Assembly (NCBI GenBank): GCA_039818205.1
Contig: JBCBUK010000003.1
Span: forward strand, 96,001 to 160,000
Direction: 5' to 3'
Origin: Verrucomicrobiota bacterium
GTDB lineage: Bacteria > Verrucomicrobiota > Verrucomicrobiia > Opitutales > Cerasicoccaceae
DNA: 64,000 nt
The number at the start of each line of letters is the position of its first letter. Positions within the stretch are counted from its first letter, which is position 1. Positions 1,407 to 16,979 of the stretch are shown here, one piece after another. Below the pieces are notes generated by a model. It was not told the origin of the DNA. It made no database searches and saw nothing but the letters and a program-made list of their open reading frames with translations. Made by a program: the position numbers and the translations under genes.

Positions 1407-3059
1407 TTACTCGCTCCCGCGCTCGATTCTTGCGGTTTGGATCTCCGGGACGACTTGCGCTATGACCGTTTGCAGGCGTTCAAGCGCCGGTTCAGTCCCA
1501 TCCAGGCTATCCGTTTGGGCAAAGAGGTAGGCCCAGCGGTGGCTCTGGAGGCGTGTAAGTCGGTCCCAGGCAAACCACGCCAGCCGTTCCGAGTTCGTAG
1601 CCGCAATGCGGTTCTGGCCCACAAACCAGTATGCAAATAGCCCGGGAATGCGTTGCTCCGTTCCATCGGGTAGTTGCTGAGTACGCTCAATCTCGAGGAC
1701 AGTGGCTTTGAGCCCACCGGTCATCCCGGGGATTGAAAACTCATGGAAAAACTTTCCCTCGATGGTCCACCCCTGGCCAACGAGGCAGATTTCCGGGCGA
1801 TGGATTGCAGCCCGGCCTCCGCCACTGAGCACGATCGAGAAGTATACGTAGTCCCCGGGTTTCTCGAGGCTTAGGTAGTGGCTGCGAGAATAGCCTGTGT
1901 CTGGGGGCAGAACCTTGCGCTCGATTTCAGAAACGGGCGCAGAACGGCCGACCCAGTCGATGCCCAACATCGCAGGGAGGGCCACGGGCTGGCTCTTGTC
2001 CCGAGCCAGGCGGACGCCGGCCTTGGCGCTATGGCCCAGGCTATCGATTTTAGAAGCAAGCGCGATCGACAGTCCGATTCCGAGAATGACCAGACTCGCG
2101 ATCGCAATGAGTCCTGACCGTTTGAGTGCCGGGATAGGCTTTTTTTCGCCCTGAGGTGTTACTTTCTCGGGCAGCCATTTTTCCAGGGCCGAAACCGTGG
2201 CGAGTGCAAAGCCCAAAACGATCACGAATACCAGGAAGCCAAACCATTCGTGGACGACCAGTCCGGCGTCTTGACCGAACCATTCTGCGGCGATGATGAT
2301 GGCAAAAATTCGAATTACGTTTCCGACGTAGGCGAACGGAAAGGCCAGGAAGAAAAGGAGGCCGCGGCGCCACCAGGACCGGAAACAACAGTAGCCGACC
2401 AAGAGTGACAACGCGGCGAGTGCAACCAGCGAACGGATCCCGGAGCAGGCAGGTTCCACGTCGTAGTTGAATGACCCATCCGGCGATACCAGATGGGTGC
2501 CGTTGCGGATCACCTCAATTCCGAGTAGGTGGGCGATTGCCGTCGCGCTCTGGATGACGGCTAGACGCAGGAAGAATCCAAATTCGTCAAAAAGAAACTC
2601 CAGGGGCAGGGCAAAGAGCATGAAGGCGAGGGGGAAGGCGGTTGCCCTTCCAGCCCGTGTCCCGCCAGCAAGCCAGGCGAGACCGTTGATGAAAACCAGC
2701 AGGCCGATAATTGATAAGCGCGCCTGCTCGACAATGAGTCCACCGGCGTGAAGGCCCAACCCGCTCATCAGGAGGATGCCAGCCGGGATGATTCGCGGCT
2801 GGACCGATACCTCGGGCGAGCGGCGCCAGTTCCAGATAGATAGACCGATGGCGGCAAGCAGCACCACGGGACCATACTCTGTTTGGCTTCGAGGATTGGT
2901 CCATTGGTGAGTCCACCAAACAAAAATTGAGCTGGTGTCGACGTAGGTTCGGACATTGTTGCCGAAGAACTGCCAAAGGACAAAACCGGCTAGACCCAGG
3001 AAAGCGGTCAAAATCCATGCTTGTTGGCGCGACGCCTCGACTGTCAGGGGTTTAGCCAT
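1407..3059 (-). CDS. Exosortase (EpsH-type) fused to a C-terminal EpsI-family periplasmic domain
   Basis: About 8 TM helices; catalytic triad contexts EPACSGIRSL (Cys), GNVIRIF (Arg) and HEWFG (His); the C-terminal domain has the EpsI-like HRPEICLVGQGW motif. Confidence 0.9.
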   Translation of the reverse strand: MAKPLTVEASRQQAWILTAFLGLAGFVLWQFFGNNVRTYVDTSSIFVWWTHQWTNPRSQTEYGPVVLLAAIGLSIWNWRRSPEVSVQPRIIPAGILLMSGLGLHAGGLIVEQARLSIIGLLVFINGLAWLAGGTRAGRATAFPLAFMLFALPLEFLFDEFGFFLRLAVIQSATAIAHLLGIEVIRNGTHLVSPDGSFNYDVEPACSGIRSLVALAALSLLVGYCCFRSWWRRGLLFFLAFPFAYVGNVIRIFAIIIAAEWFGQDAGLVVHEWFGFLVFVIVLGFALATVSALEKWLPEKVTPQGEKKPIPALKRSGLIAIASLVILGIGLSIALASKIDSLGHSAKAGVRLARDKSQPVALPAMLGIDWVGRSAPVSEIERKVLPPDTGYSRSHYLSLEKPGDYVYFSIVLSGGGRAAIHRPEICLVGQGWTIEGKFFHEFSIPGMTGGLKATVLEIERTQQLPDGTEQRIPGLFAYWFVGQNRIAATNSERLAWFAWDRLTRLQSHRWAYLFAQTDSLDGTEPALERLQTVIAQVVPEIQTARIERGSE

Positions 3060-4125
3060 TCTCGGATGAGTCTCTCTCGGTTATCGTGCAATCTGGCAAG
3101 TTCTTCTTTAGCCATGGGACCAAGCTCGCACGGATGCGATCTGGGCTTAGGCGTGTCATGCACTGCGGTTCCTCGAAGCGACAATAGTCCCGGCAGGGGA
3201 AGAAGGGACATTGGGGGTCGTGGACGATGGTGGCATCGGGGTGCAAGGGCCGGAACCAGCGAGGTTCGGTGGGCCCAAAAACCGCGAACACGGGCGTATC
3301 AACCGCGGCAGCCAGGTGTGCCGGCCCGGAATCATGACCGAGCATGGCGTCCGCCTGCGCCAAGGTTGCCGCGAGTGCTTGAACGGATAGGTTATCGAGG
3401 AAGGCGTCAGCGATCCCGTCGAGCGATTTCCCATGTCCTATTGGATCGGGGATGACAATCAGGCTAAAATTGAAATTCTGGCGGAGCGCTTCGACTACGG
3501 TCCGCCAGGAGGCTTCTGGCCAAAGGCGGGCTGGCTTGCCGGCACCAGTGTGCAGGACGATCCAGGGGCGAGGAAGTTCGGCTAGTTGGGTGGGTATGGC
3601 CTTGCAATACGCATCGCCAGGTAATGACGGCTGAGATTCGTTGGACGTAAGGCCAGCGTGCTCGATGAGCGCATTCCAGTCCTCCCAGCGATGCCTCGGA
3701 GTTTCTGACCAGTCGATAGCTTGGTTGAGAAACGCAGCGCTCCAGGAGTGGCGAAAACTATAGCGTTTTCTGACGCCAGCTAAGGAAAGCAATAGATGAT
3801 CGCGCGGATCGCGACGGGGTGAGAATCCGCATTCAAACTTTTGTTGGCGAAGCCCGCTAATGACTTTCAGTAGCGATTTCCAGTCCCATCGCCACAGGTG
3901 ATACTTGCCACGAAATGCCGTCCACGGTGCGGTCCACTCAATCCAGCTAACCTGGGGGAACGCGGGCGAAAGCAAGGCTATCGTCGCTGGTTTGGTGACC
4001 ACCGTAACCGATTTCCCGGAGTCGATGGCGGCCCTCAACGCAGAGCTCATGAGGATGGCATCGCCAAGGCCCCATAGCTCAAGAAAGAGCCACTTCTCGG
4101 GGATGCTCGCGTCTTGCCTTGTCAT
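3052..4125 (-). CDS. Glycosyltransferase family 9 (heptosyltransferase-like)
   Basis: LGDAIL, HTGAGKPARLWP and HDSGPAHLAAAVDTPVFAVFGPT motifs; Cys-rich tail (CPFFPCRDYC). Start placed at ATG 4125 to avoid overlap with the divergent gene. Confidence 0.88.
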   Translation of the reverse strand: MTRQDASIPEKWLFLELWGLGDAILMSSALRAAIDSGKSVTVVTKPATIALLSPAFPQVSWIEWTAPWTAFRGKYHLWRWDWKSLLKVISGLRQQKFECGFSPRRDPRDHLLLSLAGVRKRYSFRHSWSAAFLNQAIDWSETPRHRWEDWNALIEHAGLTSNESQPSLPGDAYCKAIPTQLAELPRPWIVLHTGAGKPARLWPEASWRTVVEALRQNFNFSLIVIPDPIGHGKSLDGIADAFLDNLSVQALAATLAQADAMLGHDSGPAHLAAAVDTPVFAVFGPTEPRWFRPLHPDATIVHDPQCPFFPCRDYCRFEEPQCMTRLSPDRIRASLVPWLKKNLPDCTITERDSSENG

Positions 4126-4161
4126 GATTGAATGCCGTGACGCTGTCGTAAGCGCGGGCAG

Positions 4162-5691
4162 ATGGCCAAGCAAAAATGGTTCGCCTGGTCGCTGGGTATC
4201 AACATGCTACGGGCCATGTATCTAGCTCCGGCAGTGGTGCGACCGATGGTGACGGTGGGCGGCATGCTCGCCGCAGTTGCTCTGGGTTTGCAGTTTGGCT
4301 GGGGTAGCATCATCGAGATGGTGGTAATCTGCGCAGCGCTTGCCTATGGGCTCCTCGCCGCGGTGTTCCGCTGCCGCTGGGAATCCCTCTTCATTGGTTT
4401 GCTGGTCTTTGGCTATTTGGTCGGAAATCGGGGATTCGCTCAGTTTATGCCAATTGGTCTGCCCTTACTTCCAGGGGAGGCCGGGGTGCTGATTGTCGCA
4501 GTCGCGTTGGTAGTCCGGGTACCGCTTGAGCGTGATTTCCCCTTTCGCTTAACCGCGTTGACGGTTCTGATTGGATTCTGGATCGCGACCTCGGCGGTCC
4601 ATATGTTGTTTGACCTGCCATCTTCGGGATTTTTGGCGATCCGCGATTTCGCCATGGTCTACTACGCGTTGTTTTATTTTGCCGGGGTTTCATTGGCGGA
4701 TCATCGAAACTCAATCTTGGTCATCGAGTGGGCGCTCGGCATCGGCTATTTCTTGATGAGCCTAGGCTGGATGTTGTCATCGTTGTGGCCGACCATTTTT
4801 GACTGGCTCACCTGGAAGGGGATTCCGCTGATCTTTTACAAAGGTGACTTGGTTGGCATGTTCGCCGCGACCGGTGTACTCTTCTACTATGGCTTGATTG
4901 AGCGAAGCCGCGACCGGATAGAGCGCATTGGTTTGACGATATTGATGGGTGTCTCGGCTGGGACATTGGCTTTATCGATGTCGCGCGCGGCGATGCTGGG
5001 TCTCGCCTTTGCGATTTTGGTTCTGCTCATCGCGGGACGCTGGCAGATTTTGGTTCGCTTAGCAGTTGTTGGTTTGGTCGGTTCCTGTCTGGTGATCGCG
5101 TCGGACATGCTGCAAGGCCGGGACCTAAATGAATCGCCGCTTTACGGGATGTTCGAGCACTCAGTTTCGTTGATCGATTTCTCCGGCACCTACCAATACC
5201 AGAACCCCGATTCCATTGATACGGGGGACAATAACCGCTTCCGCATCGTTTGGTGGGAATCGCTGTTTGATCACGTTATGGAGAAGGCTCCGATCCAGGG
5301 GTTAGGATTTGGATACGACCTCGCGAACCCGTTTATCCAGGAGTATTATCCATTGGGTAATGAGACATTCCAAACACGGAGCCCGCACAATTTTCTCCTC
5401 AGCGTTTTTGGCCGAACGGGATTTATTGGCGTAATTTTCTGGGCGCTTATTTTGATCGTTTGGATCTCACAAACTTGGTCCAAGACTCGCAATGCCTGGC
5501 TGGAGAAACATGCGGGACGCGCGCTGATTTACAACCTCATGGCGTGGGCAATATTTATTGGCGCGATCTTCCAAGTGGTGCTGGAAGGACCGATGGGAGC
5601 GGTGCTTTTCTGGTTGTTCTTGGGGCTTTCTCAAACCACACGGTTGGCCAACACCCAAACTCCGAAACCAGCCGAGGAATCGACAGCCTAG
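4162..5691 (+). CDS. O-antigen ligase / Wzy_C-family polytopic membrane protein
   Basis: About 12 TM helices, SMSRAA motif, a large periplasmic loop with R..W, GLGFG and RSPHNFLL (conserved His). Start uncertain (4162 or 4204). Confidence 0.8.
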   Translation: MAKQKWFAWSLGINMLRAMYLAPAVVRPMVTVGGMLAAVALGLQFGWGSIIEMVVICAALAYGLLAAVFRCRWESLFIGLLVFGYLVGNRGFAQFMPIGLPLLPGEAGVLIVAVALVVRVPLERDFPFRLTALTVLIGFWIATSAVHMLFDLPSSGFLAIRDFAMVYYALFYFAGVSLADHRNSILVIEWALGIGYFLMSLGWMLSSLWPTIFDWLTWKGIPLIFYKGDLVGMFAATGVLFYYGLIERSRDRIERIGLTILMGVSAGTLALSMSRAAMLGLAFAILVLLIAGRWQILVRLAVVGLVGSCLVIASDMLQGRDLNESPLYGMFEHSVSLIDFSGTYQYQNPDSIDTGDNNRFRIVWWESLFDHVMEKAPIQGLGFGYDLANPFIQEYYPLGNETFQTRSPHNFLLSVFGRTGFIGVIFWALILIVWISQTWSKTRNAWLEKHAGRALIYNLMAWAIFIGAIFQVVLEGPMGAVLFWLFLGLSQTTRLANTQTPKPAEESTA

Positions 5692-6332
5692 AAACCGTTG
5701 AGGCTGTTCGGCGCCTCTTCCATTTCTTTCTCGTGTTTGGTTCGGCTCAGATAGGCGTCAAAATCGACGTCAAACAGGACCAAATATGAACCATTTTGCT
5801 GGGCGAGCAGCTGATTGTCTGAGCGAAACAGGTTGTGCTTGAGAAGGGGTTTGTAGTCCTTGCTTGGGTAAGCGTCGGTGGGCAGGGTTCCACGATTCCA
5901 AGTGCCGTCGCCTCGATTTAGGAGAAGGAGCCCATTGCTCTCGGCCTCTGTTAGTCCAGAGCTGCGCTTATAGGCTTCAAAGACTGATTGTCCACGAGCA
6001 TAGACAACGAAAATCAACCACCCGTCGGGGTTGGCGACCGGGCGTTCGCGGTCGTCGAGGACGCGACTACTATAAGCTTTGCCGCCGTCTGCAGTCTTAT
6101 AGTAAAGCACCATTTCGTAGGTATCACTTTCTGGATCCAGGGTGTCTTTGAACGGTGATTTTTTGAAGTGCTGCTCAAAAACTTCGTCATCCAGTAGCTT
6201 TACTGCGCCGCCTTCGGTCAGCAAGCGACGTTCGAGCGTTGAACGGCTATCGCCGACGCGGGCGTTGGCTAGTTGAATACCCAAGCAACAGGCTAGGGCG
6301 ATGACGGATAGACGAGGCAACAAGGATTTCAT
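5688..6332 (-). CDS. Secreted hypothetical protein
   Basis: Signal-peptide-like MKSLLPRLSVIALACCLGIQLANA at ATG 6332, then a globular, well-formed sequence; no family recognised. Confidence 0.7.
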   Translation of the reverse strand: MKSLLPRLSVIALACCLGIQLANARVGDSRSTLERRLLTEGGAVKLLDDEVFEQHFKKSPFKDTLDPESDTYEMVLYYKTADGGKAYSSRVLDDRERPVANPDGWLIFVVYARGQSVFEAYKRSSGLTEAESNGLLLLNRGDGTWNRGTLPTDAYPSKDYKPLLKHNLFRSDNQLLAQQNGSYLVLFDVDFDAYLSRTKHEKEMEEAPNSLNGF

Positions 6333-6436
6333 CCTAAAATCGTAGGTTGAGGATTTGGTGGGAGCAAGCATGCATCCCACGATATTGGGAAGCGCATACC
6401 ATTGACTTAATATCACTTCGGGGCTATGTTTACTCC

Positions 6437-6718
6437 ATGCAACCAGCCAAGCATTCACTCGTTCGACTGTGCTTCGGTTATGTGTTGATTGCGCTTTCGA
6501 CGACCTTGTGGTTGATCGCTCCCTGGCCATGGTGGATCCCGGGTCTCGACATCCTGACGCGTGCCCTCGCGGGTTTGTCGCTGATCGCTTCGGCAGAACT
6601 GAGTTTTTACCTCGGCCTATGGGTTCTGGGACCGGGCGAAGCTGAGCATTTTTATCGCTGGGCGCGGTTTAAGCGCGGCTTCCGACGCCTGATGGATTAT
6701 TTGGCGCTCAAATGGTGA
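6437..6718 (+). CDS. Small two-TM membrane protein (resembles 'transporter suffix domain' proteins)
   Basis: Pattern G..LI.LS..LW...PW.../ AE..F.LG...LG followed by a basic tail; 93 aa from ATG 6437; overlaps the convergent gene by 22 nt. Confidence 0.6.
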   Translation: MQPAKHSLVRLCFGYVLIALSTTLWLIAPWPWWIPGLDILTRALAGLSLIASAELSFYLGLWVLGPGEAEHFYRWARFKRGFRRLMDYLALKW

Positions 6719-7317
6719 CGTTGGCGCTGCCAGGAATCCAGATCATCGACGTCTTCGAGCGTGCTCAGCGACATCCCGTGCCAACCCGCTTGGTTGGCTC
6801 GGGTAATTGTTTCATCAAAGACTTTCTCTGTGCTCCAAGGCATGTCCTCGAATAGACTCGGCAGCGTGGCTTTGAGCCCGAGCAAGGTGTAGCCGCCGTC
6901 ACGGGCCGGTCCGATGACGAAGTCTTTCGAATCGAGAAAACGGTCGGCTTCCTGCAGGTACGGCGTGACCAAGCCGGGGCAGTCCGCGCCCATGAGAAAT
7001 ACTTTATGGGCTCCTTGATCCAACGCTCTTTGGGCGGCAGCTATTAGTCGGGCGCCGAGGTCGCCAGCGGGCTGTGCCTGATAGCTATCGGCACCCGGAA
7101 GCCAGGCGCGAAATTCCGCTTCGGCATCGGCCGGTGCATAGTGGATGTTGCGAAGCCAGGATGGGGGCAACTGAGCCCACTGATGTTCGACTAACCGTCG
7201 GTAGATAGCAACGGCTTCATCATTACCGCCTTCTAAATCTGCCGCCAAGCGGGTTTTGACGAGTCCCGGTCGCGGCGCCTTGAGCATCAATGCAACGTGG
7301 GTGGCGGGCTCACTCAA
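6697..7317 (-). CDS. TIGR04282/DUF2064 family transferase (rSAM/arsenosugar-associated; CofC/MobA-like nucleotidyltransferase fold)
   Basis: KAPRPGLVKTRLA, QPAGDLGARL, GADCP, IGPARDGGYTLLGL, MPWST and DVDD motifs; the TTG start at 7317 overlaps the upstream stop. Confidence 0.9.
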   Translation of the reverse strand: MSEPATHVALMLKAPRPGLVKTRLAADLEGGNDEAVAIYRRLVEHQWAQLPPSWLRNIHYAPADAEAEFRAWLPGADSYQAQPAGDLGARLIAAAQRALDQGAHKVFLMGADCPGLVTPYLQEADRFLDSKDFVIGPARDGGYTLLGLKATLPSLFEDMPWSTEKVFDETITRANQAGWHGMSLSTLEDVDDLDSWQRQRHHLSAK

Positions 7318-8083
7318 AACGATAGACAAAGTTTGAGAACGGATAGCCACCTTCGGGTTCAGCTAAACCCAGCACCAGGTGGTCAAAGAATGATTTGCTC
7401 GCGGCAAGGTTGCCCTGCAGCTCTTCAATGGGAGTTGGGGTCGTTTGAACGCCATTGGCGTAGTCGACACCAAAACACACGAGCGAGTAGGGGAGCTCCA
7501 ATTCATTGGCGAGAACCGCTTCTGGTCCGCAGGTTTGCGAGATGAAGTCAACGCCGGCCGCTTGAAGCGCTTTGATTTCCGATTTCGTGTTAAACCGTGG
7601 GCCATTTACATGGCCGTATACGCCCTCGGAAGCTGCCTGCATGGATTGCCCTTCGGCCAGGGATTGGATCGCCGCATTGAGCGAATGGTTCACCAGGCTT
7701 TCAGCGAGAAGGTGGCCACGAGCGGGATCACCCGCTTGGTCGAAAATGGTGCAAATCTCGCCGCTCGACAATCGATTGTCGGGAAAATGGATGTCTTTAG
7801 CCACTAGTGGCTGCCCCAGGGGGAGGTTTGGGTCCAGAATCCCAACCACGGAAAGCGAAACGATGGCAGTGGCTCCGGCTTGCTTCAGGGCAACAAGGTT
7901 AGCCTGGTGGTTGATGTGGTTCGGAAGATTTGTATGCTGTGCGCCATGACGGGGAAGCAACAGGGCTTTCCGGTCACCGATCGTGCCCGCCAGGAATTGC
8001 GCCTCACCAAAAGGCGTTTCCACATACTGAACATCCAAACCGGCAAAATCGTAGAAGCCGGATCCCGTAATGAATGCGATCAT
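7310..8083 (-). CDS. MTAP-family purine nucleoside phosphorylase (divergent active-site motif)
   Basis: ITGSG, ETPFG, LPRHGAQH..P..INHQAN, GPRFNTKSE, PEAVLANELELPY and VDYAN motifs. Confidence 0.88.
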   Translation of the reverse strand: MIAFITGSGFYDFAGLDVQYVETPFGEAQFLAGTIGDRKALLLPRHGAQHTNLPNHINHQANLVALKQAGATAIVSLSVVGILDPNLPLGQPLVAKDIHFPDNRLSSGEICTIFDQAGDPARGHLLAESLVNHSLNAAIQSLAEGQSMQAASEGVYGHVNGPRFNTKSEIKALQAAGVDFISQTCGPEAVLANELELPYSLVCFGVDYANGVQTTPTPIEELQGNLAASKSFFDHLVLGLAEPEGGYPFSNFVYRFE

Positions 8084-8086
8084 GGC

Positions 8087-9244
8087 CTAGCAGCAAGATC
8101 CGCCACCACCTTCGCAGCAGCTGGATGCATCATTGGTCGCCTGGTAATCTCGGCCCTTGGTTTCCCGAGGATCGCGTCGCTGATCCGGCGCAGAATCAAA
8201 TGGTTTCGCTACCTGAGGATCAATGATCTGCCGTGGCTCAATAAATTCGAAATTACCGGCATAGGGAGATTGTTGGAGAAGCTGAAAGGTTTTGTCGCAG
8301 ACTGCTTGGCGGACGCCGCGCAGGTAGCAATGGTTGTCATCGTCGTAGACCTCACTAAAAGGCCCCTTGTAGATTACTGCTTGATTGCAGTCCCAGCACT
8401 CACCCTGTTTGCCCTTGAATGCACGCAGGGTCATGGAGCGGAATTCGATCCCCTGCACCGTGCGCCAGGGTTCTTGGTCGAGCTTGAGGATCTCGATCCC
8501 GTAAAAGCCAGCGTCTTCAAATGCCTGGATAAAATCTTCTTCAGTCATGGCTCCCGAAATGCAGCCACTCCACAGATCGGGGTCTTGCTGCATCTCTTCC
8601 GGGACGGGCTCATCGGCAACGATGTCAGAAATCACCGCCCGGCCACCAAGCTTTAGGACTCGGAAAATCTCTTCAAATAGCTGTCGCTTCTCGCGGCCTT
8701 CGACAAGGTTGAGTACGCAATTGGAAACCACGACATCGACCGAATCGTCTTCGATCAGCGGCTGCTTCGTGCGAATGCTTTCCGCTACCTCGTTGAGTGC
8801 CTCGTATTGGGACAAGCTGGTGATGGGGCGCTCCTTGAGCTCTTGATCAAGTGTCTTGAGGTCCAACTTAAGGTCCTGGATGCGGCCCTTGCGAAACTCA
8901 ACGTTTGCGTATCCGAGCTTCTCAGCGATGACTGGAGCATTACGGTTGGCAACCTCGAGCATGTCGTCGGTCATGTCGACGCCGATTACTCGGCCCTCTG
9001 GCCCGACTACTTGAGAGGCAATGAAACAGATCTTTCCGGCGCCGGATCCCAGATCGAGCACGGTTTCTCCAGGCTGCACGTAGCGGGACGGATCGCCGCA
9101 GCCGTAGTCCTTAGCGATCACTTCTTCGGGGATAATCTCCAAATACTTCGGATCATAGTTTACTGGGCAGCAGAGCGCTTGCTCGCGCTCTTTGGCGGCC
9201 TCAGCGTAGCGGTTCATTACAGATGTTTGAGTATTCATTGCCAT
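8087..9244 (-). CDS. arsM: Arsenite S-adenosylmethionine methyltransferase (long form)
   Basis: LCCP, YGCG, VLDLGSGAG (SAM motif I), VIGVDMT, SNCVLNL and WSGCISGA (ArsM-type Cys set); Cys-rich C-terminus SSCCEGGGGSCC. Start 9244 or 9238. Confidence 0.88.
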   Translation of the reverse strand: MAMNTQTSVMNRYAEAAKEREQALCCPVNYDPKYLEIIPEEVIAKDYGCGDPSRYVQPGETVLDLGSGAGKICFIASQVVGPEGRVIGVDMTDDMLEVANRNAPVIAEKLGYANVEFRKGRIQDLKLDLKTLDQELKERPITSLSQYEALNEVAESIRTKQPLIEDDSVDVVVSNCVLNLVEGREKRQLFEEIFRVLKLGGRAVISDIVADEPVPEEMQQDPDLWSGCISGAMTEEDFIQAFEDAGFYGIEILKLDQEPWRTVQGIEFRSMTLRAFKGKQGECWDCNQAVIYKGPFSEVYDDDNHCYLRGVRQAVCDKTFQLLQQSPYAGNFEFIEPRQIIDPQVAKPFDSAPDQRRDPRETKGRDYQATNDASSCCEGGGGSCC

Positions 9245-9251
9245 GTCTAAA

Positions 9252-10238
9252 CTAGTTGAGTGCTCCGCCACACGACGAACCGGCTCCAGCCGTGCAGCCG
9301 AAGCAGTGGGGGCCCGTTGCAATGGGACGCGAGAAGTCTTTTTCGGTGATGTCCCAAACGCGCGGCGGTGAGTCTCCAGCCCAGATCATGCCAAGCTGTT
9401 GATTAAAGTCACAATCGTAAACATATCCCTGCCAATCAATGCTTAATGTATCGCGGCACATGAGGTGGTTTACCGAGCCCGGGTTAAAATTATCCACCAG
9501 GAGCTTCATATAGTCCGCGAGTTGTCCCTGCCGCTTTAGCCAGGAGGCAAATCGGGCAATTGGCATATTGGTGATGGTGTAGAGCTGGTGAAACTCGATC
9601 CCGAAGTGTTTTTTCAATTCCGTTTTGTAGTCGGCTTCGAGTTCGGCCTGATCGGGTGGTAGGGACGCGCCCACGGGATTGTAGACCAGATTCAGGGGCA
9701 GAGCATCATCGATTCCGTAGCCCAAGGAGTTCAAGAGCTGAAGGGCTTTGATGCTGCCGTCGAAGACGCCATCGCCGCGCTGGGCGTTAACATTGTCCGG
9801 AGAATAACAGGGCATTGAAGCGGTGATCTCGACGCGGTTTTGCGCCATAAATTCCGCAAGTCCCTCATAGCCAGGCTCCAACAGGATCGTTAAATTGCAG
9901 CGATCGATAATGCGGCGTTGGGCATCCTGAGCCCTAAGCGTTTCGATCAGGTAGCGGAAATCCGGGATCATCTCGGGGGCACCTCCCGTGAGGTCGACGA
10001 TTGGTAGGGGAAACTTTTCCAGCCATCCCAATAGGCCGTCAACCGTTTCCCGAGTCATAATTTCTTTCCGACTGGGGCCCGCATTCACATGGCAATGGAT
10101 GCAGGTGAGATTGCACAATCGGCCAACGTTAACCTGTAAGGTAGTTGGCTGGGAGCGGACGAGCTCCTGACCCGCGGCTCTCAGCGCCGCAAGGAAATTT
10201 GGCGCCGGTCTTTCGGCTATCTTCGTGTCATTTAGCAT
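9252..10238 (-). CDS. arsS: Arsenosugar biosynthesis radical SAM protein ArsS (TIGR04167-type; Cys form)
   Basis: LQVNVGRLCNLTCIHCHVNAGP (CxxxCxxC), DLTGGAPE, LNLVYNP, LMCR, YDCDFNQ and C-terminal HCFGCTAGAGSSCGGAL. Confidence 0.95.
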   Translation of the reverse strand: MLNDTKIAERPAPNFLAALRAAGQELVRSQPTTLQVNVGRLCNLTCIHCHVNAGPSRKEIMTRETVDGLLGWLEKFPLPIVDLTGGAPEMIPDFRYLIETLRAQDAQRRIIDRCNLTILLEPGYEGLAEFMAQNRVEITASMPCYSPDNVNAQRGDGVFDGSIKALQLLNSLGYGIDDALPLNLVYNPVGASLPPDQAELEADYKTELKKHFGIEFHQLYTITNMPIARFASWLKRQGQLADYMKLLVDNFNPGSVNHLMCRDTLSIDWQGYVYDCDFNQQLGMIWAGDSPPRVWDITEKDFSRPIATGPHCFGCTAGAGSSCGGALN

Positions 10239-10283: not shown

Positions 10284-10351
10284 TTCCTTGCAAAGTATCT
10301 CCGAACCTGATTTACCTGTAATGAAACCAACGGTGTCGCGACCAATTGGGA

Positions 10352-11083
10352 ATGAAACGCTTCTTAGCATTGCTATTCTTTGCCGCATGGACCTCGCTGA
10401 ACGCCGGGACCCATTCGGACTTGTATAACTCCTATGGTGAGTTGCTGTCCAAATACGTTAAACCATCAGGAGTAGATTATCAATCCTGGGTGGTCAATGA
10501 CGAGGATGTGGACGCGCTTTACGATTTGCTCATGGCGATGTCCATTGTCGACGTCGACTCACTGTCTGATGACGAGCAGCAGGCGTTTTACATCAATTTA
10601 TACAATGCGGCAATGATCCAAGCAGTCTTGGAGAATTATCCGCTTAAGACGGTCACGACGATATTGCCGGGTTTTGGGATTTTCGAAAAGAAATACATCC
10701 AGCTGGGCGACCGCGTATTGTCGCTGAACGAAGTTGAAAAATCGATTTTGTTGGAGCGGTGGGACGAGCCTCGGATTCATTTTGCGGTCAATTGCGCCAG
10801 TGCTAGTTGCCCGCCTTTGCGCAACGAGCCCTTTACCGGCGAAAAGCTGGAAACCCAGCTACAAGAGCAGACCGAACAGTTTGCTGAAACCAAGCATGCT
10901 CTTCGACTCGACCGCAAAAACCGCACTGCCTATGTCAGCTCATTGTTTGATTGGTATGCTGACGACTTTCCCGGTGATTCACCGCTACACTACCTGAACC
11001 GCTACCGTCAGAAATCGATTCCAACTCGCTACAAGGTGAAGTTCATCAACTATGACTGGTCGCTCAACGAAGCCAAAAACTAG
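10352..11083 (+). CDS. DUF547 family exported protein
   Basis: Signal peptide MKRFLALLFFAAWTSLNA; AFYINLYNA, RIHFAVNCASASCPPL, FDWYADDF and YDWSLN motifs. Confidence 0.92.
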   Translation: MKRFLALLFFAAWTSLNAGTHSDLYNSYGELLSKYVKPSGVDYQSWVVNDEDVDALYDLLMAMSIVDVDSLSDDEQQAFYINLYNAAMIQAVLENYPLKTVTTILPGFGIFEKKYIQLGDRVLSLNEVEKSILLERWDEPRIHFAVNCASASCPPLRNEPFTGEKLETQLQEQTEQFAETKHALRLDRKNRTAYVSSLFDWYADDFPGDSPLHYLNRYRQKSIPTRYKVKFINYDWSLNEAKN

Positions 11084-11114: not shown

Positions 11115-13418
11115 ATGGCTGCTATTTCTCGCTACTATCACTGGCTCCACGGCAAATGGCCGTCGGGTGCCACCGAAAAAATGCCCAAGATCGCTGAAGA
11201 TGGGCAAACCGACATTCCCGGCGTTCGCGTCGTGGGTGACTTGACCGGTGTTCCTTTGCTCAAGTTCTCCGCCGACACCGGGGCAAAGGCCATCGATGGC
11301 ATCCTCGCCGAAAACGATTTCAAGCCAGGAGACGATCCCGAAGTCTTGGACGTCGCGATCATTGGAGCAGGGGTGTCGGGTATCTCTGCCGCGATCCAAG
11401 CCAAGAAGGCAGGCCTGCGCTACGAGGTGTTTGAATCTCAGGAAAGCTTTTCGACGATCCGGAATTTTCCGCGTCGCAAGCCAATTTACACCTATCCGAC
11501 CAACATGGAGCCGGCGGGCGAAATGCGGTTTCGCGCTGATGTGAAGGAAGATTTGCTCGTTGAGCTCGAAGCGCAGCGCGTTGAGCACGGTATTGAAACA
11601 ACCGTTGGAGAGGTCGACCACGTCGAACACGGTGGAAGCGGCCTTAAGGTCGTTTTCAAGGAGAAGTCAGGCCGTGACCCACAGCGGGCGCAGCGCGTCA
11701 TTGTGGCAATTGGCCGGACGGGTAATTTCCGGAAGCTGAATGTCCCCGGCGAGAATTTGGACAAGGTGTCGAATCGCCTGATTGATGCCCGCGAGTTCAA
11801 GGGGCAAAAGGTGCTCGTCGTTGGCGGTGGAGACTCGGCTTTGGAAGCTGCCATCTCTTTGGCGGAAGAAGGTGCCGAGGTAACGCTCAGCTATCGCAGC
11901 GCCGAGTTCAAACGCCCGAAGCCAGACAATATCGATCGTATTCAGCAGATGGCGAAAGACGGGGAGTTGGCCCTGATGATGCGCTCGAACGTTCAGGATA
12001 TTGGTGAGGAATCAGTCACGATCTGCGATGAGAATGATCAGGACGTTACCAAATCCATTGACCAGGTCTTTATTTTGATTGGCCGTGAGCCACCCTTGGA
12101 TTTTTTCCGGAAGTCGAAAGTTTCCATTATCGGAGAGCTGACGACGAAGAGCATCATTGGGTTGGTCGCCTTCCTGGCGGTGATGACTTTTCTCTACCAC
12201 CTGAAGGCCTACAAGCCATTCCTGGGAATTCCGGGAACGAATCTCTGGCAGGTCTTTTCCGCCAACAAATGGTTCCCATTCAATCTGCCGATTGCAGGGG
12301 GTGATAGCAGTTTCCTGCATGTGATCACCAAGAATGCTGCCAGCGATCCAGGCTTCCTCTTCGCCTTCCTGTACACGATGGTGATCGTCATTTTTGGGGC
12401 AAAGCGGATCAAGCGGCGTAAAACACCGTACGTAACCCGACAGACGCTCACCCTGATGGCGTTTCAGGTGATTCCGTTGTTCATTCTTCCTTACGTGGTG
12501 TTGCCTTGGATGGGGGCGAACGGCTGGTTTACCAGCGGCGGAATTGGTGAGTGGTTTGGCATGACTTTCTTGTCGAACGGCCCCGGAACCACGCCGGACC
12601 AGTATTGGCGGGCCTTCGGGTTTATTCTGGCCTGGCCCTTGTTCATTTACAACGTGTTCACCCCGGGTCCGCTTTGGGGGTGGCTCGTGTTGAGCCTGAT
12701 CCAGACTTTCATCATTATCCCGCTGATTGTTCGTCGCTGGGGGAAGGGTGCCTATTGCGGATGGATTTGCTCCTGCGGCGCGATGGCTGAAACCTTGGGC
12801 GACCAGCATCGACACAAGATGCCCCATGGCCCCAAGGTCAATCGCCTGAACATGATCGGGCAGGCTATCTTGGCGATCGCTTTCCTGCTACTGGCGTTGA
12901 GAGTCGTCGGCTGGGTCGTCCCCAACAACGGATTCAACCAGTTTGTTTCGGGGTTAATCGGGGACAACAGTTTCTTCAGCTACAAGGTCATCATCGACCT
13001 GTGGCTCGCCGGTGCGATTGGCTATGGATTGTATTTTCATTATTCCGGTCGGGTCTGGTGCCGCTTTGCGTGTCCTCTGGCCGCATTGATGCACATTTAC
13101 GCCCGTTTCTCGAAATTCCGCATTTTCGCCGACAAGAAGAAGTGCATCTCGTGTAACGCCTGCACGTCGATTTGCCACCAGGGCATCGATATCATGAATT
13201 TCGCGAACAAGGGGCTTCCCCTGGAGGATCCCGAGTGCGTCCGCTGTTCAGCTTGTGTGCAGGTTTGCCCGACCGGCGTGCTGAATTTCGGACGCTTCGA
13301 CAAGAACGACAAAGCAGTCCTCGAACGCCTTTGGGCCTCGCCGGTGCAGATGCGTGAAGCGGAGATCAGTGCGACGCCGATTGACGATTATTTGTCCCAG
13401 GCAACGAAAAAAGTCTGA
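11115..13418 (+). CDS. FAD/NAD(P)H oxidoreductase (TrxR/YpdA-like) fused to a NapH/FixG-like membrane iron-sulfur domain
   Basis: IIGAGVSG (FAD), VVGGGDSALE (NAD(P)H), about 7 TM helices, CGWICSCG and CRFACP motifs, and two [4Fe-4S] motifs CISCNACTSICH and CVRCSACVQVCP. Confidence 0.88.
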   Translation: MAAISRYYHWLHGKWPSGATEKMPKIAEDGQTDIPGVRVVGDLTGVPLLKFSADTGAKAIDGILAENDFKPGDDPEVLDVAIIGAGVSGISAAIQAKKAGLRYEVFESQESFSTIRNFPRRKPIYTYPTNMEPAGEMRFRADVKEDLLVELEAQRVEHGIETTVGEVDHVEHGGSGLKVVFKEKSGRDPQRAQRVIVAIGRTGNFRKLNVPGENLDKVSNRLIDAREFKGQKVLVVGGGDSALEAAISLAEEGAEVTLSYRSAEFKRPKPDNIDRIQQMAKDGELALMMRSNVQDIGEESVTICDENDQDVTKSIDQVFILIGREPPLDFFRKSKVSIIGELTTKSIIGLVAFLAVMTFLYHLKAYKPFLGIPGTNLWQVFSANKWFPFNLPIAGGDSSFLHVITKNAASDPGFLFAFLYTMVIVIFGAKRIKRRKTPYVTRQTLTLMAFQVIPLFILPYVVLPWMGANGWFTSGGIGEWFGMTFLSNGPGTTPDQYWRAFGFILAWPLFIYNVFTPGPLWGWLVLSLIQTFIIIPLIVRRWGKGAYCGWICSCGAMAETLGDQHRHKMPHGPKVNRLNMIGQAILAIAFLLLALRVVGWVVPNNGFNQFVSGLIGDNSFFSYKVIIDLWLAGAIGYGLYFHYSGRVWCRFACPLAALMHIYARFSKFRIFADKKKCISCNACTSICHQGIDIMNFANKGLPLEDPECVRCSACVQVCPTGVLNFGRFDKNDKAVLERLWASPVQMREAEISATPIDDYLSQATKKV

Positions 13419-13494: not shown

Positions 13495-14976
13495 ATGGTG
13501 CTATTCTCTCACTTAATCTGGTGGACCTACGGACTGATGTGCTTTTTGCTTTTCGCATACGGCATCAACAGCTACGTCCTGATCGCATTGTTCGGGCGCC
13601 GCAAGCGGTTAGCCCTCGAAGATAATAAGCACCGCGCGGAGCAGTTTACTCAGAAGCTGGACAAAGGCGACGCTCAATGGCCACGGGTCTTGACGCAGTT
13701 GCCGGTCTACAACGAGCTGAATGTCGCTGAGCGTGTAATCCGAGCTGCGGTCGCCATGGAATACCCGGAAGGCTTGCATGAGGTCCAGGTCCTGGACGAC
13801 TCGACCGACGAAACTTGCGGAATGATCGATAAGGTCGTTGAGGAGTTGCAGGCCGAAGGCAAAAACGTGCGGGTGGTTCGTCGGGAGGATCGAGTCGGCT
13901 TTAAGGCAGGCGCATTAAATGAGGGGATGCACCAAAGCGATGCGCCACTGATTGCAATCTTTGACAGCGACTTCGTGCCTAATCCCGACTTTTTGTTGCG
14001 CAGCGTGCCGCAGATTGTTGAGCAGCCGGAAGTTGCTTTGGTGCAAGCGCGGTGGGGTCATCTAAACGATGACGAGTCCTGGTTGACCCGTTCGCTATCG
14101 ATTGGTATCGACGGTCACTTTGCCATCGAGCAACCCGCGCGGGCCTGGAACCAGCTCTACTTGAATTTTAATGGAACCGCCGGGGTGTGGCGCCGTGAAG
14201 CGATCGTTGATGCCGGTGGCTGGGAGGCTGATACGCTTACCGAAGACATGGACTTGTCCTACCGGGCTCAAATGAAAGGCTGGCGGATCCACTATTTGTT
14301 CGACGTCGCAGTACCGGCTGAGTTGCCGAATACCTTCGCCGCGTTCAAGAGCCAGCAGTTTCGTTGGGCCAAGGGATCTATCCAAACGGCGATCAAGCAC
14401 CTGCCTCGGGTGATCAAATCGAACGTGGGCACATTTAAGAAGGTGCAATCGATCTTCCACCTGACGCATTATTACATCCATATTTGCATGCTCTCGCTGG
14501 CTTTGCTGGCTTTGCCACTCCTATTTGCGCAGAACGCCGCACCGAGCCCCTGGGTCTGGATCGTGATCTCCTTACCGATTCTCCTGTCGACCGTTGGGCC
14601 GAGCCTGTTATATGTCGTCAGCCAGTTTGCCATCGATCCGCGGGTCGCCTGGCGGAAGCTTCGTTATTTGCCGGGTCTTATCCTGATTGGTTTTGGCATC
14701 TCGCTTTCAAATGCCCGGGCGGTTGTCGAGGCGCTTATTGGCCGCAAGACGGAGTTCGTGCGAACGCCCAAATGCGGTGTTTCCTCGCTGAAAAAATATA
14801 AGCTACCGAAGAACAGCCTACCTTGGTTTGAGATCCTTTTGGGTGCATACTGCCTTTTCACTTTGGTGTTGGCCTTGAAACTGGATCGTCCGGCATTGGG
14901 ACCGTTCATTCTGGTCTACATTATTGGATACTTGACGGTGGGCGGCTGTAGTTTGATGGAAACCCGGCGTCAGTAA
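13495..14976 (+). CDS. Cellulose-synthase-like GT2 membrane glycosyltransferase
   Basis: QLPVYNE, DDSTD, FKAGAL, FDSDF, LTEDMDLS and QQFRWAKG (D,D,D,QxxRW signature); N- and C-terminal TM helices. Confidence 0.92.
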   Translation: MVLFSHLIWWTYGLMCFLLFAYGINSYVLIALFGRRKRLALEDNKHRAEQFTQKLDKGDAQWPRVLTQLPVYNELNVAERVIRAAVAMEYPEGLHEVQVLDDSTDETCGMIDKVVEELQAEGKNVRVVRREDRVGFKAGALNEGMHQSDAPLIAIFDSDFVPNPDFLLRSVPQIVEQPEVALVQARWGHLNDDESWLTRSLSIGIDGHFAIEQPARAWNQLYLNFNGTAGVWRREAIVDAGGWEADTLTEDMDLSYRAQMKGWRIHYLFDVAVPAELPNTFAAFKSQQFRWAKGSIQTAIKHLPRVIKSNVGTFKKVQSIFHLTHYYIHICMLSLALLALPLLFAQNAAPSPWVWIVISLPILLSTVGPSLLYVVSQFAIDPRVAWRKLRYLPGLILIGFGISLSNARAVVEALIGRKTEFVRTPKCGVSSLKKYKLPKNSLPWFEILLGAYCLFTLVLALKLDRPALGPFILVYIIGYLTVGGCSLMETRRQ

Positions 14977-16979
14977 TGACGCCCGTTGACCAATTGCGTA
15001 ATTGGGTGTTTTGCCTCCTGGCGATTCTGCTCGTTGCGGTCGCATTGGTCTACGGGGAGATTGTGACAGCGTTCGATGCCGAGGGTGTTGCTCGGGTTTG
15101 GATTTATTTCTTGTTGGGGTTGAGCGGGTTTGCGCTGGTGTTCTGTTGGCCGCGACTGACGCCGAAGCGAGAGGTGGCTTTGCTACTCCTTTTGGGCGCT
15201 GTGGTGCGCTTGGCTCTTTTGCCAACAGCACCCTCAGACGACATCCATCGCTACCTATGGGAGGGTAAACTTGTTGCCGATGGCGTGAGCCCGTATGCGG
15301 CCACGGCCGATGACCCCATCTTCGCTGCCTATTTCGATGACCAGTGGGAGCGGATGAACCATCGGGACAAATGGACGGCCTATCCGCCTGGATCGGAACT
15401 CGTGTTCGCGCTGCTGGCAAAAATCAGTTACAGCACAACGGCGTTTAAGTTGGCGTTTATCGGGTTAGACCTGGTGGTTGTCGCCTTGGTGGCTGGCTTG
15501 CTGCACTTTCGATCGCTACCACTTCGCTGGGCTGGCTTCTATGCGTTTAACCCGATTGTGCTCATCTCATTTGCCGGGGAAGGACACTTCGATGTGCTGA
15601 TGATTGCACCCATGGTGGCCGCAGTTCTCGCCTCGGAACATAAGCGGTATTGGTTGGCTTTTGTCCTGTTGGGGATTGCGGTTCAGATGAAGATTTTCGC
15701 GCTCCTGGCGTTACCGTTTCTGATACGCGAGTGCGGATGGAAATACCTCGGTGCATTTATTCTCACGGTGGTGGTCATCTCGATTCCCTTCGCGGCGGAT
15801 ATTGGTAACATGGTCAATGGGCTTTTCCTTTTCGGCTCGGGGCGTAGTTTCAATGGCTTCGTGTATGATACCTGGCTGCGATGGTTTGATTCCCGGACCG
15901 TCGCGAACATCATTACGGCTGTTTTATTTTTGGGCCTCTGCGCATGGCGTTATTTTTCCAAAGCGCGATCCCATTGGGAAGGGGATTGGTATTTCGTTAT
16001 TGGAGCGCTGTTGATTCTTAGTCCGACGGTTCACTTTTGGTACCTGACATGGTTATTGCCCTTTGTCGCGCTACGCCCATCGATCGCGTGGCTTTGCTTT
16101 AGTTTAACCATGGGCGTCTATTTCCTGGTTTGGTCCAACGCCGAGTCGGGAGCGTGGGGCCTTACTCGCTTTGAATCAGGATTAATCTGGGTTCCGTTCT
16201 TGGCACTAGGGATTTATGAATGGACCCACTTTCATCGCAAGAAGGTGGAACGCCGTCGTGATTTTCCTGAAGGCTTGTCGGTTATCATACCGACCTTCAA
16301 TGCGGCCGATCATTTGCCTGACTGCTTGCAGTCGGTTGAAGCATCGAGCACGCCCGCTGAGGAGATCATTGTCGCGGACGGCGGCTCAACCGATAACACT
16401 TTGAACGTGGCTTCGCGAAACGAATGCCAGGTGGTGACGAGCCCGCTCGGGCGGGGAGAGCAGATTGCTGCTGGCTTGGAGCAGGCTAAGTATCGCTATG
16501 TGTTGATCTTGCACGCTGATTGCGTTCTGGGAACGCATGCCATCAAGCGCCTTCATCGACTCCTGAAAGATTCTCCGTTTGTGGTCGGCGGTTCCCTCGG
16601 ACAGCGCTTTAATCGGGCGAGCCCGATGTTGTTGTTTATTGAGGTGCTGAACGAGATTCGGGCAACGGTAGGCAGCGTGTCATTTGGAGATCAGGCGCAG
16701 TTTTTTGACCGTCGCTATCTTTCCAATGAGGCCTACCCGGCGCAGCCTTTGATGGAGGACGTAGAGCTGAGCCTGCGACTTCGTGAGCGGGGCCAGTGTG
16801 CTTATCTGGGTGAGGAGTTGGTCTCGGAAAGCGCGAAATGGCAACGCGTTGGCAGTTGGCAACGGATTGCCTTGGTATTTCGCTTTGTCGCCGTGTACCG
16901 TTGGACGCGGATCTGGTTTCCGGGGAAGGTCGGTGAGCTTAGCCGACGCCTTTACCGTGAGTATTATAGGCAGTCTTGA
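14976..16979 (+). CDS. Fusion of a GT-C (GT87/DUF2029-like) membrane glycosyltransferase and a TIGR04283-type GT2 domain
   Basis: N-terminal ~430 aa polytopic domain with SDDIHRYLWEG, YPP, NP, GHFD and VHFWY; from ~16272 a GT2 domain with SVIIPTFNA, DGGSTD, HAD, FGDQAQF and PLMEDVEL. Confidence 0.85.
   Translation: MTPVDQLRNWVFCLLAILLVAVALVYGEIVTAFDAEGVARVWIYFLLGLSGFALVFCWPRLTPKREVALLLLLGAVVRLALLPTAPSDDIHRYLWEGKLVADGVSPYAATADDPIFAAYFDDQWERMNHRDKWTAYPPGSELVFALLAKISYSTTAFKLAFIGLDLVVVALVAGLLHFRSLPLRWAGFYAFNPIVLISFAGEGHFDVLMIAPMVAAVLASEHKRYWLAFVLLGIAVQMKIFALLALPFLIRECGWKYLGAFILTVVVISIPFAADIGNMVNGLFLFGSGRSFNGFVYDTWLRWFDSRTVANIITAVLFLGLCAWRYFSKARSHWEGDWYFVIGALLILSPTVHFWYLTWLLPFVALRPSIAWLCFSLTMGVYFLVWSNAESGAWGLTRFESGLIWVPFLALGIYEWTHFHRKKVERRRDFPEGLSVIIPTFNAADHLPDCLQSVEASSTPAEEIIVADGGSTDNTLNVASRNECQVVTSPLGRGEQIAAGLEQAKYRYVLILHADCVLGTHAIKRLHRLLKDSPFVVGGSLGQRFNRASPMLLFIEVLNEIRATVGSVSFGDQAQFFDRRYLSNEAYPAQPLMEDVELSLRLRERGQCAYLGEELVSESAKWQRVGSWQRIALVFRFVAVYRWTRIWFPGKVGELSRRLYREYYRQS

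Follow-up and report, generated by a model that had tools for sequence, protein, structure and literature searches.

A candidate DDMAA phosphorylase of the MTAP fold in an arsenosugar gene cluster of Verrucomicrobiota

Arsenosugars count among the major organoarsenicals in marine food webs. They are 5-dimethylarsinoyl-beta-D-ribofuranosides devoid of adenine (PMC10456119), and the initial steps of their synthesis are catalysed by ArsM and ArsS, giving DDMAA (PMC8552651), with ArsS performing a redox-neutral adenosylation of DMA(III) (PMC13598754) and SAH arising as by-product of ArsM (bioRxiv 10.1101/2024.02.01.577332). An 'adenosyl nucleosidase' proposed for an algal arsenolipid is cited in the review PMC10456119. 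In the literature examined, with most subscription papers and supplements lying outside the search, only the ArsM and ArsS steps have assigned enzymes and no assignment of a phosphorylase to the pathway was found; the accessible part of PMC12608789 contains nothing on it. The closest described systems, namely the ArsM/ArsS route in Synechocystis PCC 6803 and the arsenosugar set of NCBIfam (TIGR04167, TIGR04282, TIGR04283), share with the locus described here arsS, an arsM-like gene, TIGR04282 and a TIGR04283-like domain, all present in the window, and have no enzyme assigned to adenine removal in that literature.

A comparable logic is known from hopanoid synthesis, in which the radical SAM enzyme HpnH (TIGR03470) adds an adenosyl group to the acceptor and the phosphorylase-family enzyme HpnG (TIGR03468) removes adenine. 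The acceptor and the subfamily are however different, and the HpnG model scores only 19.1 bits (cut-off 187.1) on the protein studied here, so that the relation is one of analogy and not of membership. A further related system is the DHAP shunt for 5'-deoxyadenosine (phosphorylase or nucleosidase plus kinase, isomerase, aldolase), which likewise begins with an MtnP-type cleavage; in PMC8102628, MtnP is also reported to detoxify 5'-deoxyadenosine without the isomerase, through excretion.

The arsenosugar block in the window

The window, i.e., the whole stretch of 64,000 nucleotides that was analysed, contains a block of arsenosugar genes (Table 1) in which arsS and TIGR04282 score above their cut-offs. 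The arsM-like product is a clear homologue that scores beneath all three ArsM cut-offs (339/500, 218/263 and 133/400), and its true start is likely the ATG at 9244, 7 nt past the arsS stop. As proposed in the preliminary description, the phosphorylase gene follows the arsM-like gene directly, only 3 nt (8084-8086) separating the two, and its 3' end is overlapped by the TIGR04282 ORF, by 41, 20 or 8 nt depending on whether the latter starts at GTG 7350, TTG 7329 or TTG 7317. Both the SQTCGPE and the VDYAN segment, after the first of which we call this the SQT gene, are present as described and align to the corresponding segments of human MTAP. The TIGR04282 product matched PDB entries 3cgx (E 6.6e-27) and, more weakly, the guanylyltransferase 6bwg (E 0.017), and is predicted to be a sugar-1-phosphate nucleotidylyltransferase. 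The TIGR04283-like domain of the last gene, at 163.8 against a cut-off of 182, is again a clear homologue. A promoter and terminator scan returned 2 and 1 sites, respectively, not above shuffled sequence, and no tRNA or tmRNA was found at the block edges.

Table 1. Features of the arsenosugar block, in window coordinates.
Feature	Coordinates	Strand	Basis
TIGR04282/DUF2064 CofC-like protein	6697..7350	-	TIGR04282 172.1, cut-off 134; weak CofC TIGR03552
SQT-type MTAP-fold nucleoside phosphorylase	7310..8083	-	257 aa, ATG start; PF01048, model fold
VDYAN base-recognition segment, residues 206-210	7454..7468	-	aligns to human MTAP T219-D220-Y221-D222
SQTCGPE motif, residues 182-188	7520..7540	-	aligns to human MTAP N195-M196-T197
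arsM-like arsenite methyltransferase	8087..9322	-	NF040538 338.8/500, NF008823 218.1/263
arsS, arsenosugar radical SAM enzyme	9252..10238	-	TIGR04167 435.1 bits, cut-off 300
DUF547 protein, divergently transcribed	10346..11083	+	PF04784
FAD oxidoreductase fused to membrane 4Fe-4S domain	11115..13418	+	profile matches
GT2 membrane glycosyltransferase	13495..14976	+	PF13641, PF13632
GT87-like membrane domain fused to TIGR04283-like GT2 domain	14976..16979	+	PF09594, PF00535

None of five congeners, one of them only 72% complete, carries the SQT gene, arsS or TIGR04282; their PF01048 matches reach 54 bits at most, with one full-length weak match in G402. Congener G404 lacks the block, whose last member is the GT87-like/TIGR04283-like gene, and has the flanking genes together in an interval of 3.7 kb, indicating that a stretch of about 10 kb, from 6697 to roughly 17150, was gained or lost as a unit. 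The SQT gene is therefore accessory and not housekeeping, being absent together with arsS and TIGR04282 from all five congeners. Next to the block, a small membrane-type ORF without Pfam or NCBIfam match (6347-6718, plus strand) overlaps a minus-strand gene (5688-6530); its 3' part is kept beside the 280-aa gene in 4/4 congeners, which places this ORF outside the arsenic block. Ordinary envelope genes (exosortase, GT9 glycosyltransferase, O-antigen-ligase-like) occupy positions 1407-5691.

Fold, active site and phylogenetic position

The SQT protein belongs to the NP-I superfamily (PF01048, 77.5 bits, cut-off 25.1) and passes no NCBIfam equivalog. Its top NCBIfam match is the MtnP/MTAP model TIGR01694, at 148.9 against a cut-off of 274.85, while the MTIP model NF006599 gave 123.5 (cut-off 223); the closest single-sequence PDB match is a 5'-methylthioinosine phosphorylase (3ozb). 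The predicted structure (pLDDT 95.4) has the NP-I fold (Foldseek TM about 0.8) and MTAPs as nearest neighbours (Z 31.3, rmsd 2.1 over 246 residues), with Z scores of 27-31 against MTAP/MTIP structures and about 22-23 against trimeric PNPs.

Compared with MTAP (PDB 1cb0, 2a8y), the phosphate residues are shared, human Thr/Ser18, Arg60, His61, Thr93 and Thr197 corresponding to S8, R45, H46, S78 and T184, as are equivalents of His65, His137, Phe177 and Asp220. On the contrary, identity is only about 24-28%, and the protein has Gln in place of Met196, Ser of Asn/Gly195, Val (Val79) of Ala94, Ala of Asp222, Thr of Val231 and Asn of Ser178, the replacements of Ala94, Val231 and Asp222 being specific to the SQT branch. 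With MTIP the protein has the x-Y/P-A-A/N-G loop shape in common, but it carries Asn165/Asp207 where MTIP-like rows have the Glu/Asn pair for 6-oxopurines.

Conservation was counted in the best 120 of 584 homologues, the query itself included. In this set SQTCGPE was found in 116/120 and Gln at the motif position in 119/120, while Asp207, Asn210, Arg45, His46, His50, His124 and T184 were invariant (120/120) and Thr217, which stands for human Val231, occurred in 119/120; with motif, Gln and Asp207 conserved to this degree, chance is excluded as the origin of the SQT segment. Met occupies the Gln183 position in all 17 canonical MTAP and 52 MTIP-like background rows, a count that shows only that such rows are plentiful, the groups having been defined by residues 183, 207 and 209. 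The base-site residues covary, with Asn165/Asp207 in 35/36 Asp-type SQT rows, Ser or Gly/Asp in 17/17 canonical MTAP rows and Glu/Asn in 52/52 MTIP-like rows, position 165 being the only independent count because 207 was used for group definition.

The intact phosphate-binding residues class the protein, as judged from its sequence, as a phosphorylase and not a hydrolase. Of the hydrogen-bond partners of MTAP listed in a secondary, docking-based source (PMC6131760), namely Met196, Asp220 and Asp222, only Asp220 is retained, as Asp207, with Gln183 and Ala209 replacing the other two. As an Asn-to-Asp change at the base site shifts trimeric PNPs toward adenosine (PMC5074518), Asp207 makes an adenine nucleoside the likely substrate. 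SAH is disfavoured, since AhcY, which handles the SAH produced by ArsM, was found in 5/5 SQT genomes tested. In the same docking source (PMC6131760) the methylthio site of MTAP is formed by Thr18, Pro69 and Val231, and the polar replacements Met196 to Gln183 and Val231 to Thr217 may suit an As=O group, as a refinement and not a requirement. The Cys to which the preliminary description also drew attention is indeed present in the motif, but it occurs in only 21/36 Asp-type SQT rows, a weaker mark than was implied, and Cys185 is thus ruled out as a central arsenic ligand.

A quick maximum-likelihood tree was computed from 111 of 145 rows, after removal of 8 fragmentary rows and roughly one half of the generic GMT set. 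It grouped 48 SQT rows and one SMA row (SH-aLRT 89), in agreement with the expectation that SQT sequences form a single branch; this group and a 14-row sister family were split from all canonical MTAP, MTIP-like and PNP rows with support 100. Gln is nevertheless not exclusive to the branch, since the GQT row P0171 falls outside it and the SMA row inside. By its base-site residues the SQT branch is divided into an adenine-type (Asp) and a hypoxanthine-type (Asn) sub-branch. The Glu/Asn pair occurs, within the SQT branch, only in a sub-branch which we take, from its gene content, to be Rubrobacter-like.

Distribution and enzymes occupying the same slot

By SQT profile search the gene was found in 6/401 genomes of the phylum and arsS in 18/401, five of the six SQT genomes having arsS; as these six come from four families, three of them from one, Fisher values for the co-occurrence overstate it. 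TIGR04282 lies within about 2 kb of the SQT gene in 6/6 and is translationally coupled to it in 5/6, and arsS is in the cluster itself in 3/6. In G035 and G242 arsS is located elsewhere in the genome and the SQT gene is still in an operon with TIGR04282, while in the sixth genome, G370, the operon contains arsM-like, arsC-like, TIGR04282 and a divergent radical SAM gene. A single-protein scan of genome contigs retrieved one locus only, L005 (SQTLGPE), where ars genes are absent from the 9.7 kb upstream and the 530 bp downstream of the SQT gene; arsS and TIGR04282 are present elsewhere in that genome.

A wider set comprised 77 SQT loci (L005, L012-L096), 57 after removal of near copies, of which 19 have at least 4 kb on either side; the metagenome scan was keyed on SQTCGPEA, so that the remaining SQT variants are under-represented, and some of the proteins used as neighbourhood queries derive from the same loci, their identities having been checked. 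In the 15 long Asp-type loci (4 of them from the phylum genomes) TIGR04282 or TIGR04283 was found in 14, arsS in 9 and arsM in 5, while the four long Asn-type loci have TIGR04282 (4/4), no arsS (0/4) and mtnA in two. The presumed arsS linkage of the branch thus holds in part for the Asp-type loci, TIGR04282/TIGR04283 being more constant companions than arsS or arsM, and fails for the Asn-type sub-branch. The DUF547 gene recurs in 7/15 long Asp-type loci, the FAD oxidoreductase/4Fe-4S fusion adjoins the SQT gene in L014 and L093, and the GT2 membrane glycosyltransferase gene is also near arsS in G141 and G309. In L075 an ArsS-ArsM fusion protein of 653 aa (5250-7211) is encoded in an operon with TIGR04283, TIGR04282, a MerA-like oxidoreductase, VTT, the SQT phosphorylase and DUF547.

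That the SQT protein is a housekeeping enzyme of methionine or purine salvage, standing in the operon by chance, is very improbable. The search for a separate housekeeping mtnP, suggested in the preliminary description, found none: the window's genome has no other MTAP/PNP-type gene, two further PF01048 ORFs being weak partial matches, and the SQT gene is the sole gene of this type in G000 and G249, which speaks for a housekeeping function. However, an ordinary PNP is encoded in addition in G035, G242 and G377, the SQT gene is absent from 5/5 congeners and from 395/401 phylum genomes, and MtnA (PF01008) gave no match in the window's genome (99.97% complete) nor in the other five SQT genomes, compared with 79/94 genomes with canonical MTAP. 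The absence of MtnA is only modest evidence against a salvage role, since its base rate is 122/401 and it is generally rare in the families of the SQT genomes.

Canonical MTAPs were found in the same position in other arsenosugar clusters. Among 53 plasmid records with arsS (48 from Burkholderia), five were inspected and four have a canonical MTAP inside the cluster: in B. thailandensis and B. glumae MTAP, TIGR04283 and TIGR04282 are consecutive (motifs GMTNLPE and VTDYD), in Cupriavidus the MTAP immediately follows TIGR04282, and in Acinetobacter it lies on the opposite strand, 2.2 kb off; in Thiodictyon no phosphorylase is annotated within 10 kb of the arsS cluster. Two of the Burkholderia plasmid clusters (L192:11932-17250 and L194:11950-17263) have a second radical SAM gene and no annotated arsM, together with an ECF sigma/anti-sigma pair and thioredoxin and CcdA genes; similar sigma/redox genes occur in L198. 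Within the phylum, G080, of the same genus as the SQT-bearing G242, has a canonical-type MTAP above the cut-off (NMTVAPE, VTDFD) heading DUF547, VTT, a MerA-like oxidoreductase and a TIGR04282-GT fusion, in a genome without MtnA. The cluster-borne canonical MTAPs fall in a different part of the tree than the SQT branch. Their recurrent recruitment argues that an MTAP-type reaction has a role in the pathway; at the same time, as GMT and NMT enzymes fill the slot, the SQT motif is dispensable there, and the idea that the Met-to-Gln change marks DDMAA specificity is unsupported as a necessity. The cluster being already named by NCBIfam and the protein annotated as MTAP-family, what is new is the separate SQT branch with its remodelled pocket, the split into adenine and hypoxanthine types and the replacement by a canonical MTAP in a congener (G080 versus G242). 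The latter two, with one genus and the same slot, offer a natural pair for the question of an arsenic-adapted pocket.

Of the 18 arsS genomes, five have the SQT gene, five a canonical MTAP, one a PNP whose base site carries Asp and seven no Asp-type enzyme (search at E 1e-12; 30/37 places read, including all in the seven negative genomes). Among the 13 without SQT gene only one has a phosphorylase in its cluster, G080 being the only one of the five canonical-MTAP genomes where the enzyme was located there. The step is thus not always performed by an MTAP/PNP of this kind. All seven negative genomes have an adenosine-deaminase-family gene and 5/7 an IU-family hydrolase, through which a bypass is conceivable from gene content. 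In arsS genome G222, the PNP-type enzyme that carries Asp in its base site (ITDECD; L156:1426-2247) is encoded away from the ars genes and is a possible stand-in for the SQT enzyme.

Proposed role and related loci

In the pathway that we propose, ArsM methylates arsenic and ArsS adenosylates DMA(III) to DDMAA, as described in the literature, after which the SQT phosphorylase would convert DDMAA and phosphate to adenine and 5-dimethylarsinoyl-5-deoxy-alpha-ribose 1-phosphate. The CofC-like TIGR04282 protein of the overlapping gene would then turn the sugar phosphate into an NDP-sugar, and the TIGR04283-like GT2 would transfer the sugar to a glycerol or lipid acceptor. Phosphorylases and GT2 enzymes act with inversion. 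The series would run from beta nucleoside to alpha 1-phosphate, alpha NDP-sugar and finally beta riboside, i.e., the configuration of the natural arsenosugar beta-ribofuranosides. We assign a probability of roughly 60% to this reading, phosphorolysis of DDMAA feeding TIGR04282 and then TIGR04283, which would fill the adenine-removal step. A dedicated DDMAA phosphorylase had been suggested from the start; of that suggestion the pathway role on DDMAA stands as the best-supported account, on the basis of co-occurrence, operon position, Asp207, the lack of MtnA and the absence from congeners, while the SQT motif proved not to be required for the slot. Weighing against this account are the arsS genomes that have no SQT gene (13/18) or no Asp-type enzyme (7/18), the loss of Asp222, the occurrence of the Asn-type sub-branch with a non-ArsS radical SAM gene, and the detoxifying activity described for MtnP. 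Since the operon points to a substrate, a product and the two enzymes that follow, each of them either soluble or open to assay, the late pathway should be reconstitutable.

Alternatively, the SQT enzyme might serve local detoxification, clearing 5'-deoxyadenosine from uncoupled ArsS turnover (or MTA), with adenine recovered, the deoxyribose phosphate dephosphorylated and excreted, and DDMAA losing its adenine by other means. MTAP-family enzymes do cleave 5'-deoxyadenosine, and the isomerase of the DHAP shunt, missing in 6/6 SQT genomes, would be unnecessary along the excretion route given in PMC8102628. Moreover, the window's genome gives 18 radical SAM matches but contains no MTAP/PNP-type gene besides the SQT gene, canonical MTAPs occupy the same slot, and in seven of the 18 arsS genomes TIGR04282 is present without any Asp-type enzyme. 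Productive ArsS turnover, however, being redox-neutral according to PMC13598754, does not yield 5'-deoxyadenosine as a stoichiometric product; the congeners live without the gene; and in the split clusters of G035 and G242 it accompanies TIGR04282 and not arsS, as fits the supply of a sugar 1-phosphate. We consider this explanation unlikely, DDMAA phosphorolysis remaining the preferred one.

SQT genes are also found with radical SAM genes other than arsS. The Asn-type loci L037 (2914-8568), L054, L057, L063 and L089, all soil metagenome contigs, combine the phosphorylase with a methyltransferase, a non-ArsS radical SAM, a GT2 and TIGR04282; mtnA is directly upstream in L037, and senA, senB, selD and phosphonate-type ABC genes are nearby in Asn-type loci. 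Their radical SAM protein has only about 23% identity to ArsS over 145 residues and is close neither to ArsS nor to the one from Methylobacterium. In the Asp-type operon of L023, where no arsS was found, a BioB-like radical SAM gene (2124-3179) lies between TIGR04282 and TIGR04283. In L096 a divergent radical SAM gene (8684-9601; TIGR04167 only 59.9 bits) takes the arsS position of an arsM/arsC/TIGR04282/SQT operon in a genome without arsS match, and its product is a possible ArsS analogue.

Such loci, in which three or more radical SAM types other than ArsS occur (L037, L023, L096), would be accommodated if phosphorylase, TIGR04282 and GT2 formed a general module converting any radical-SAM 5'-adenosyl adduct to a glycoside, the adduct here being not, or not only, arsenic; plasmid TIGR04282 clusters with other radical SAM genes and the selenium genes near several loci (senA, senB, selD, YedE) point the same way. 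Against this, the operon of the window has ArsS well above the cut-off and an arsM-like gene directly upstream of the SQT gene, and that of G370 also has an arsC-like gene, so that for the present locus we regard the general module as quite improbable. More tentatively, and rather doubtful in its full extent, the SQT branch could be a dedicated family for radical-SAM-made 5'-substituted nucleosides. Its Asp-type members would be DDMAA phosphorylases in which Gln183 and Thr217 bind As=O and DDMAA is preferred over MTA, forming with TIGR04282 and TIGR04283 a three-enzyme route to beta-arsenoribosides, and the Asn-type members and the sister family would act in parallel 5'-substituted riboside pathways.

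A catabolic role, off the path to the final arsenosugar, in which the enzyme would recycle arsenoribosides or dispose of DDMAA as an inhibitory analogue of adenosine, shares the substrate logic of DDMAA phosphorolysis and would agree with the surroundings of the sister family, whose operons are of the import type and encode a TonB receptor, an ABC transporter and a kinase. Translational coupling to the predicted nucleotidylyltransferase in 5/6 genomes fits instead a forward pathway, and we hold catabolism to be even less probable than the general module. The sister family itself (L211:3689-10358 and L212:9386-18702) is marked by the motifs SMTLAPE, GPRTKT and GHKYS and by Lys at both base-site positions in 10/10 rows. 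Its operons, where the kinase partner is an APH/methylthioribose-kinase-like gene, look like import and salvage of some 5-substituted riboside; an additional weak TIGR04282-like gene is present at the L212 locus.
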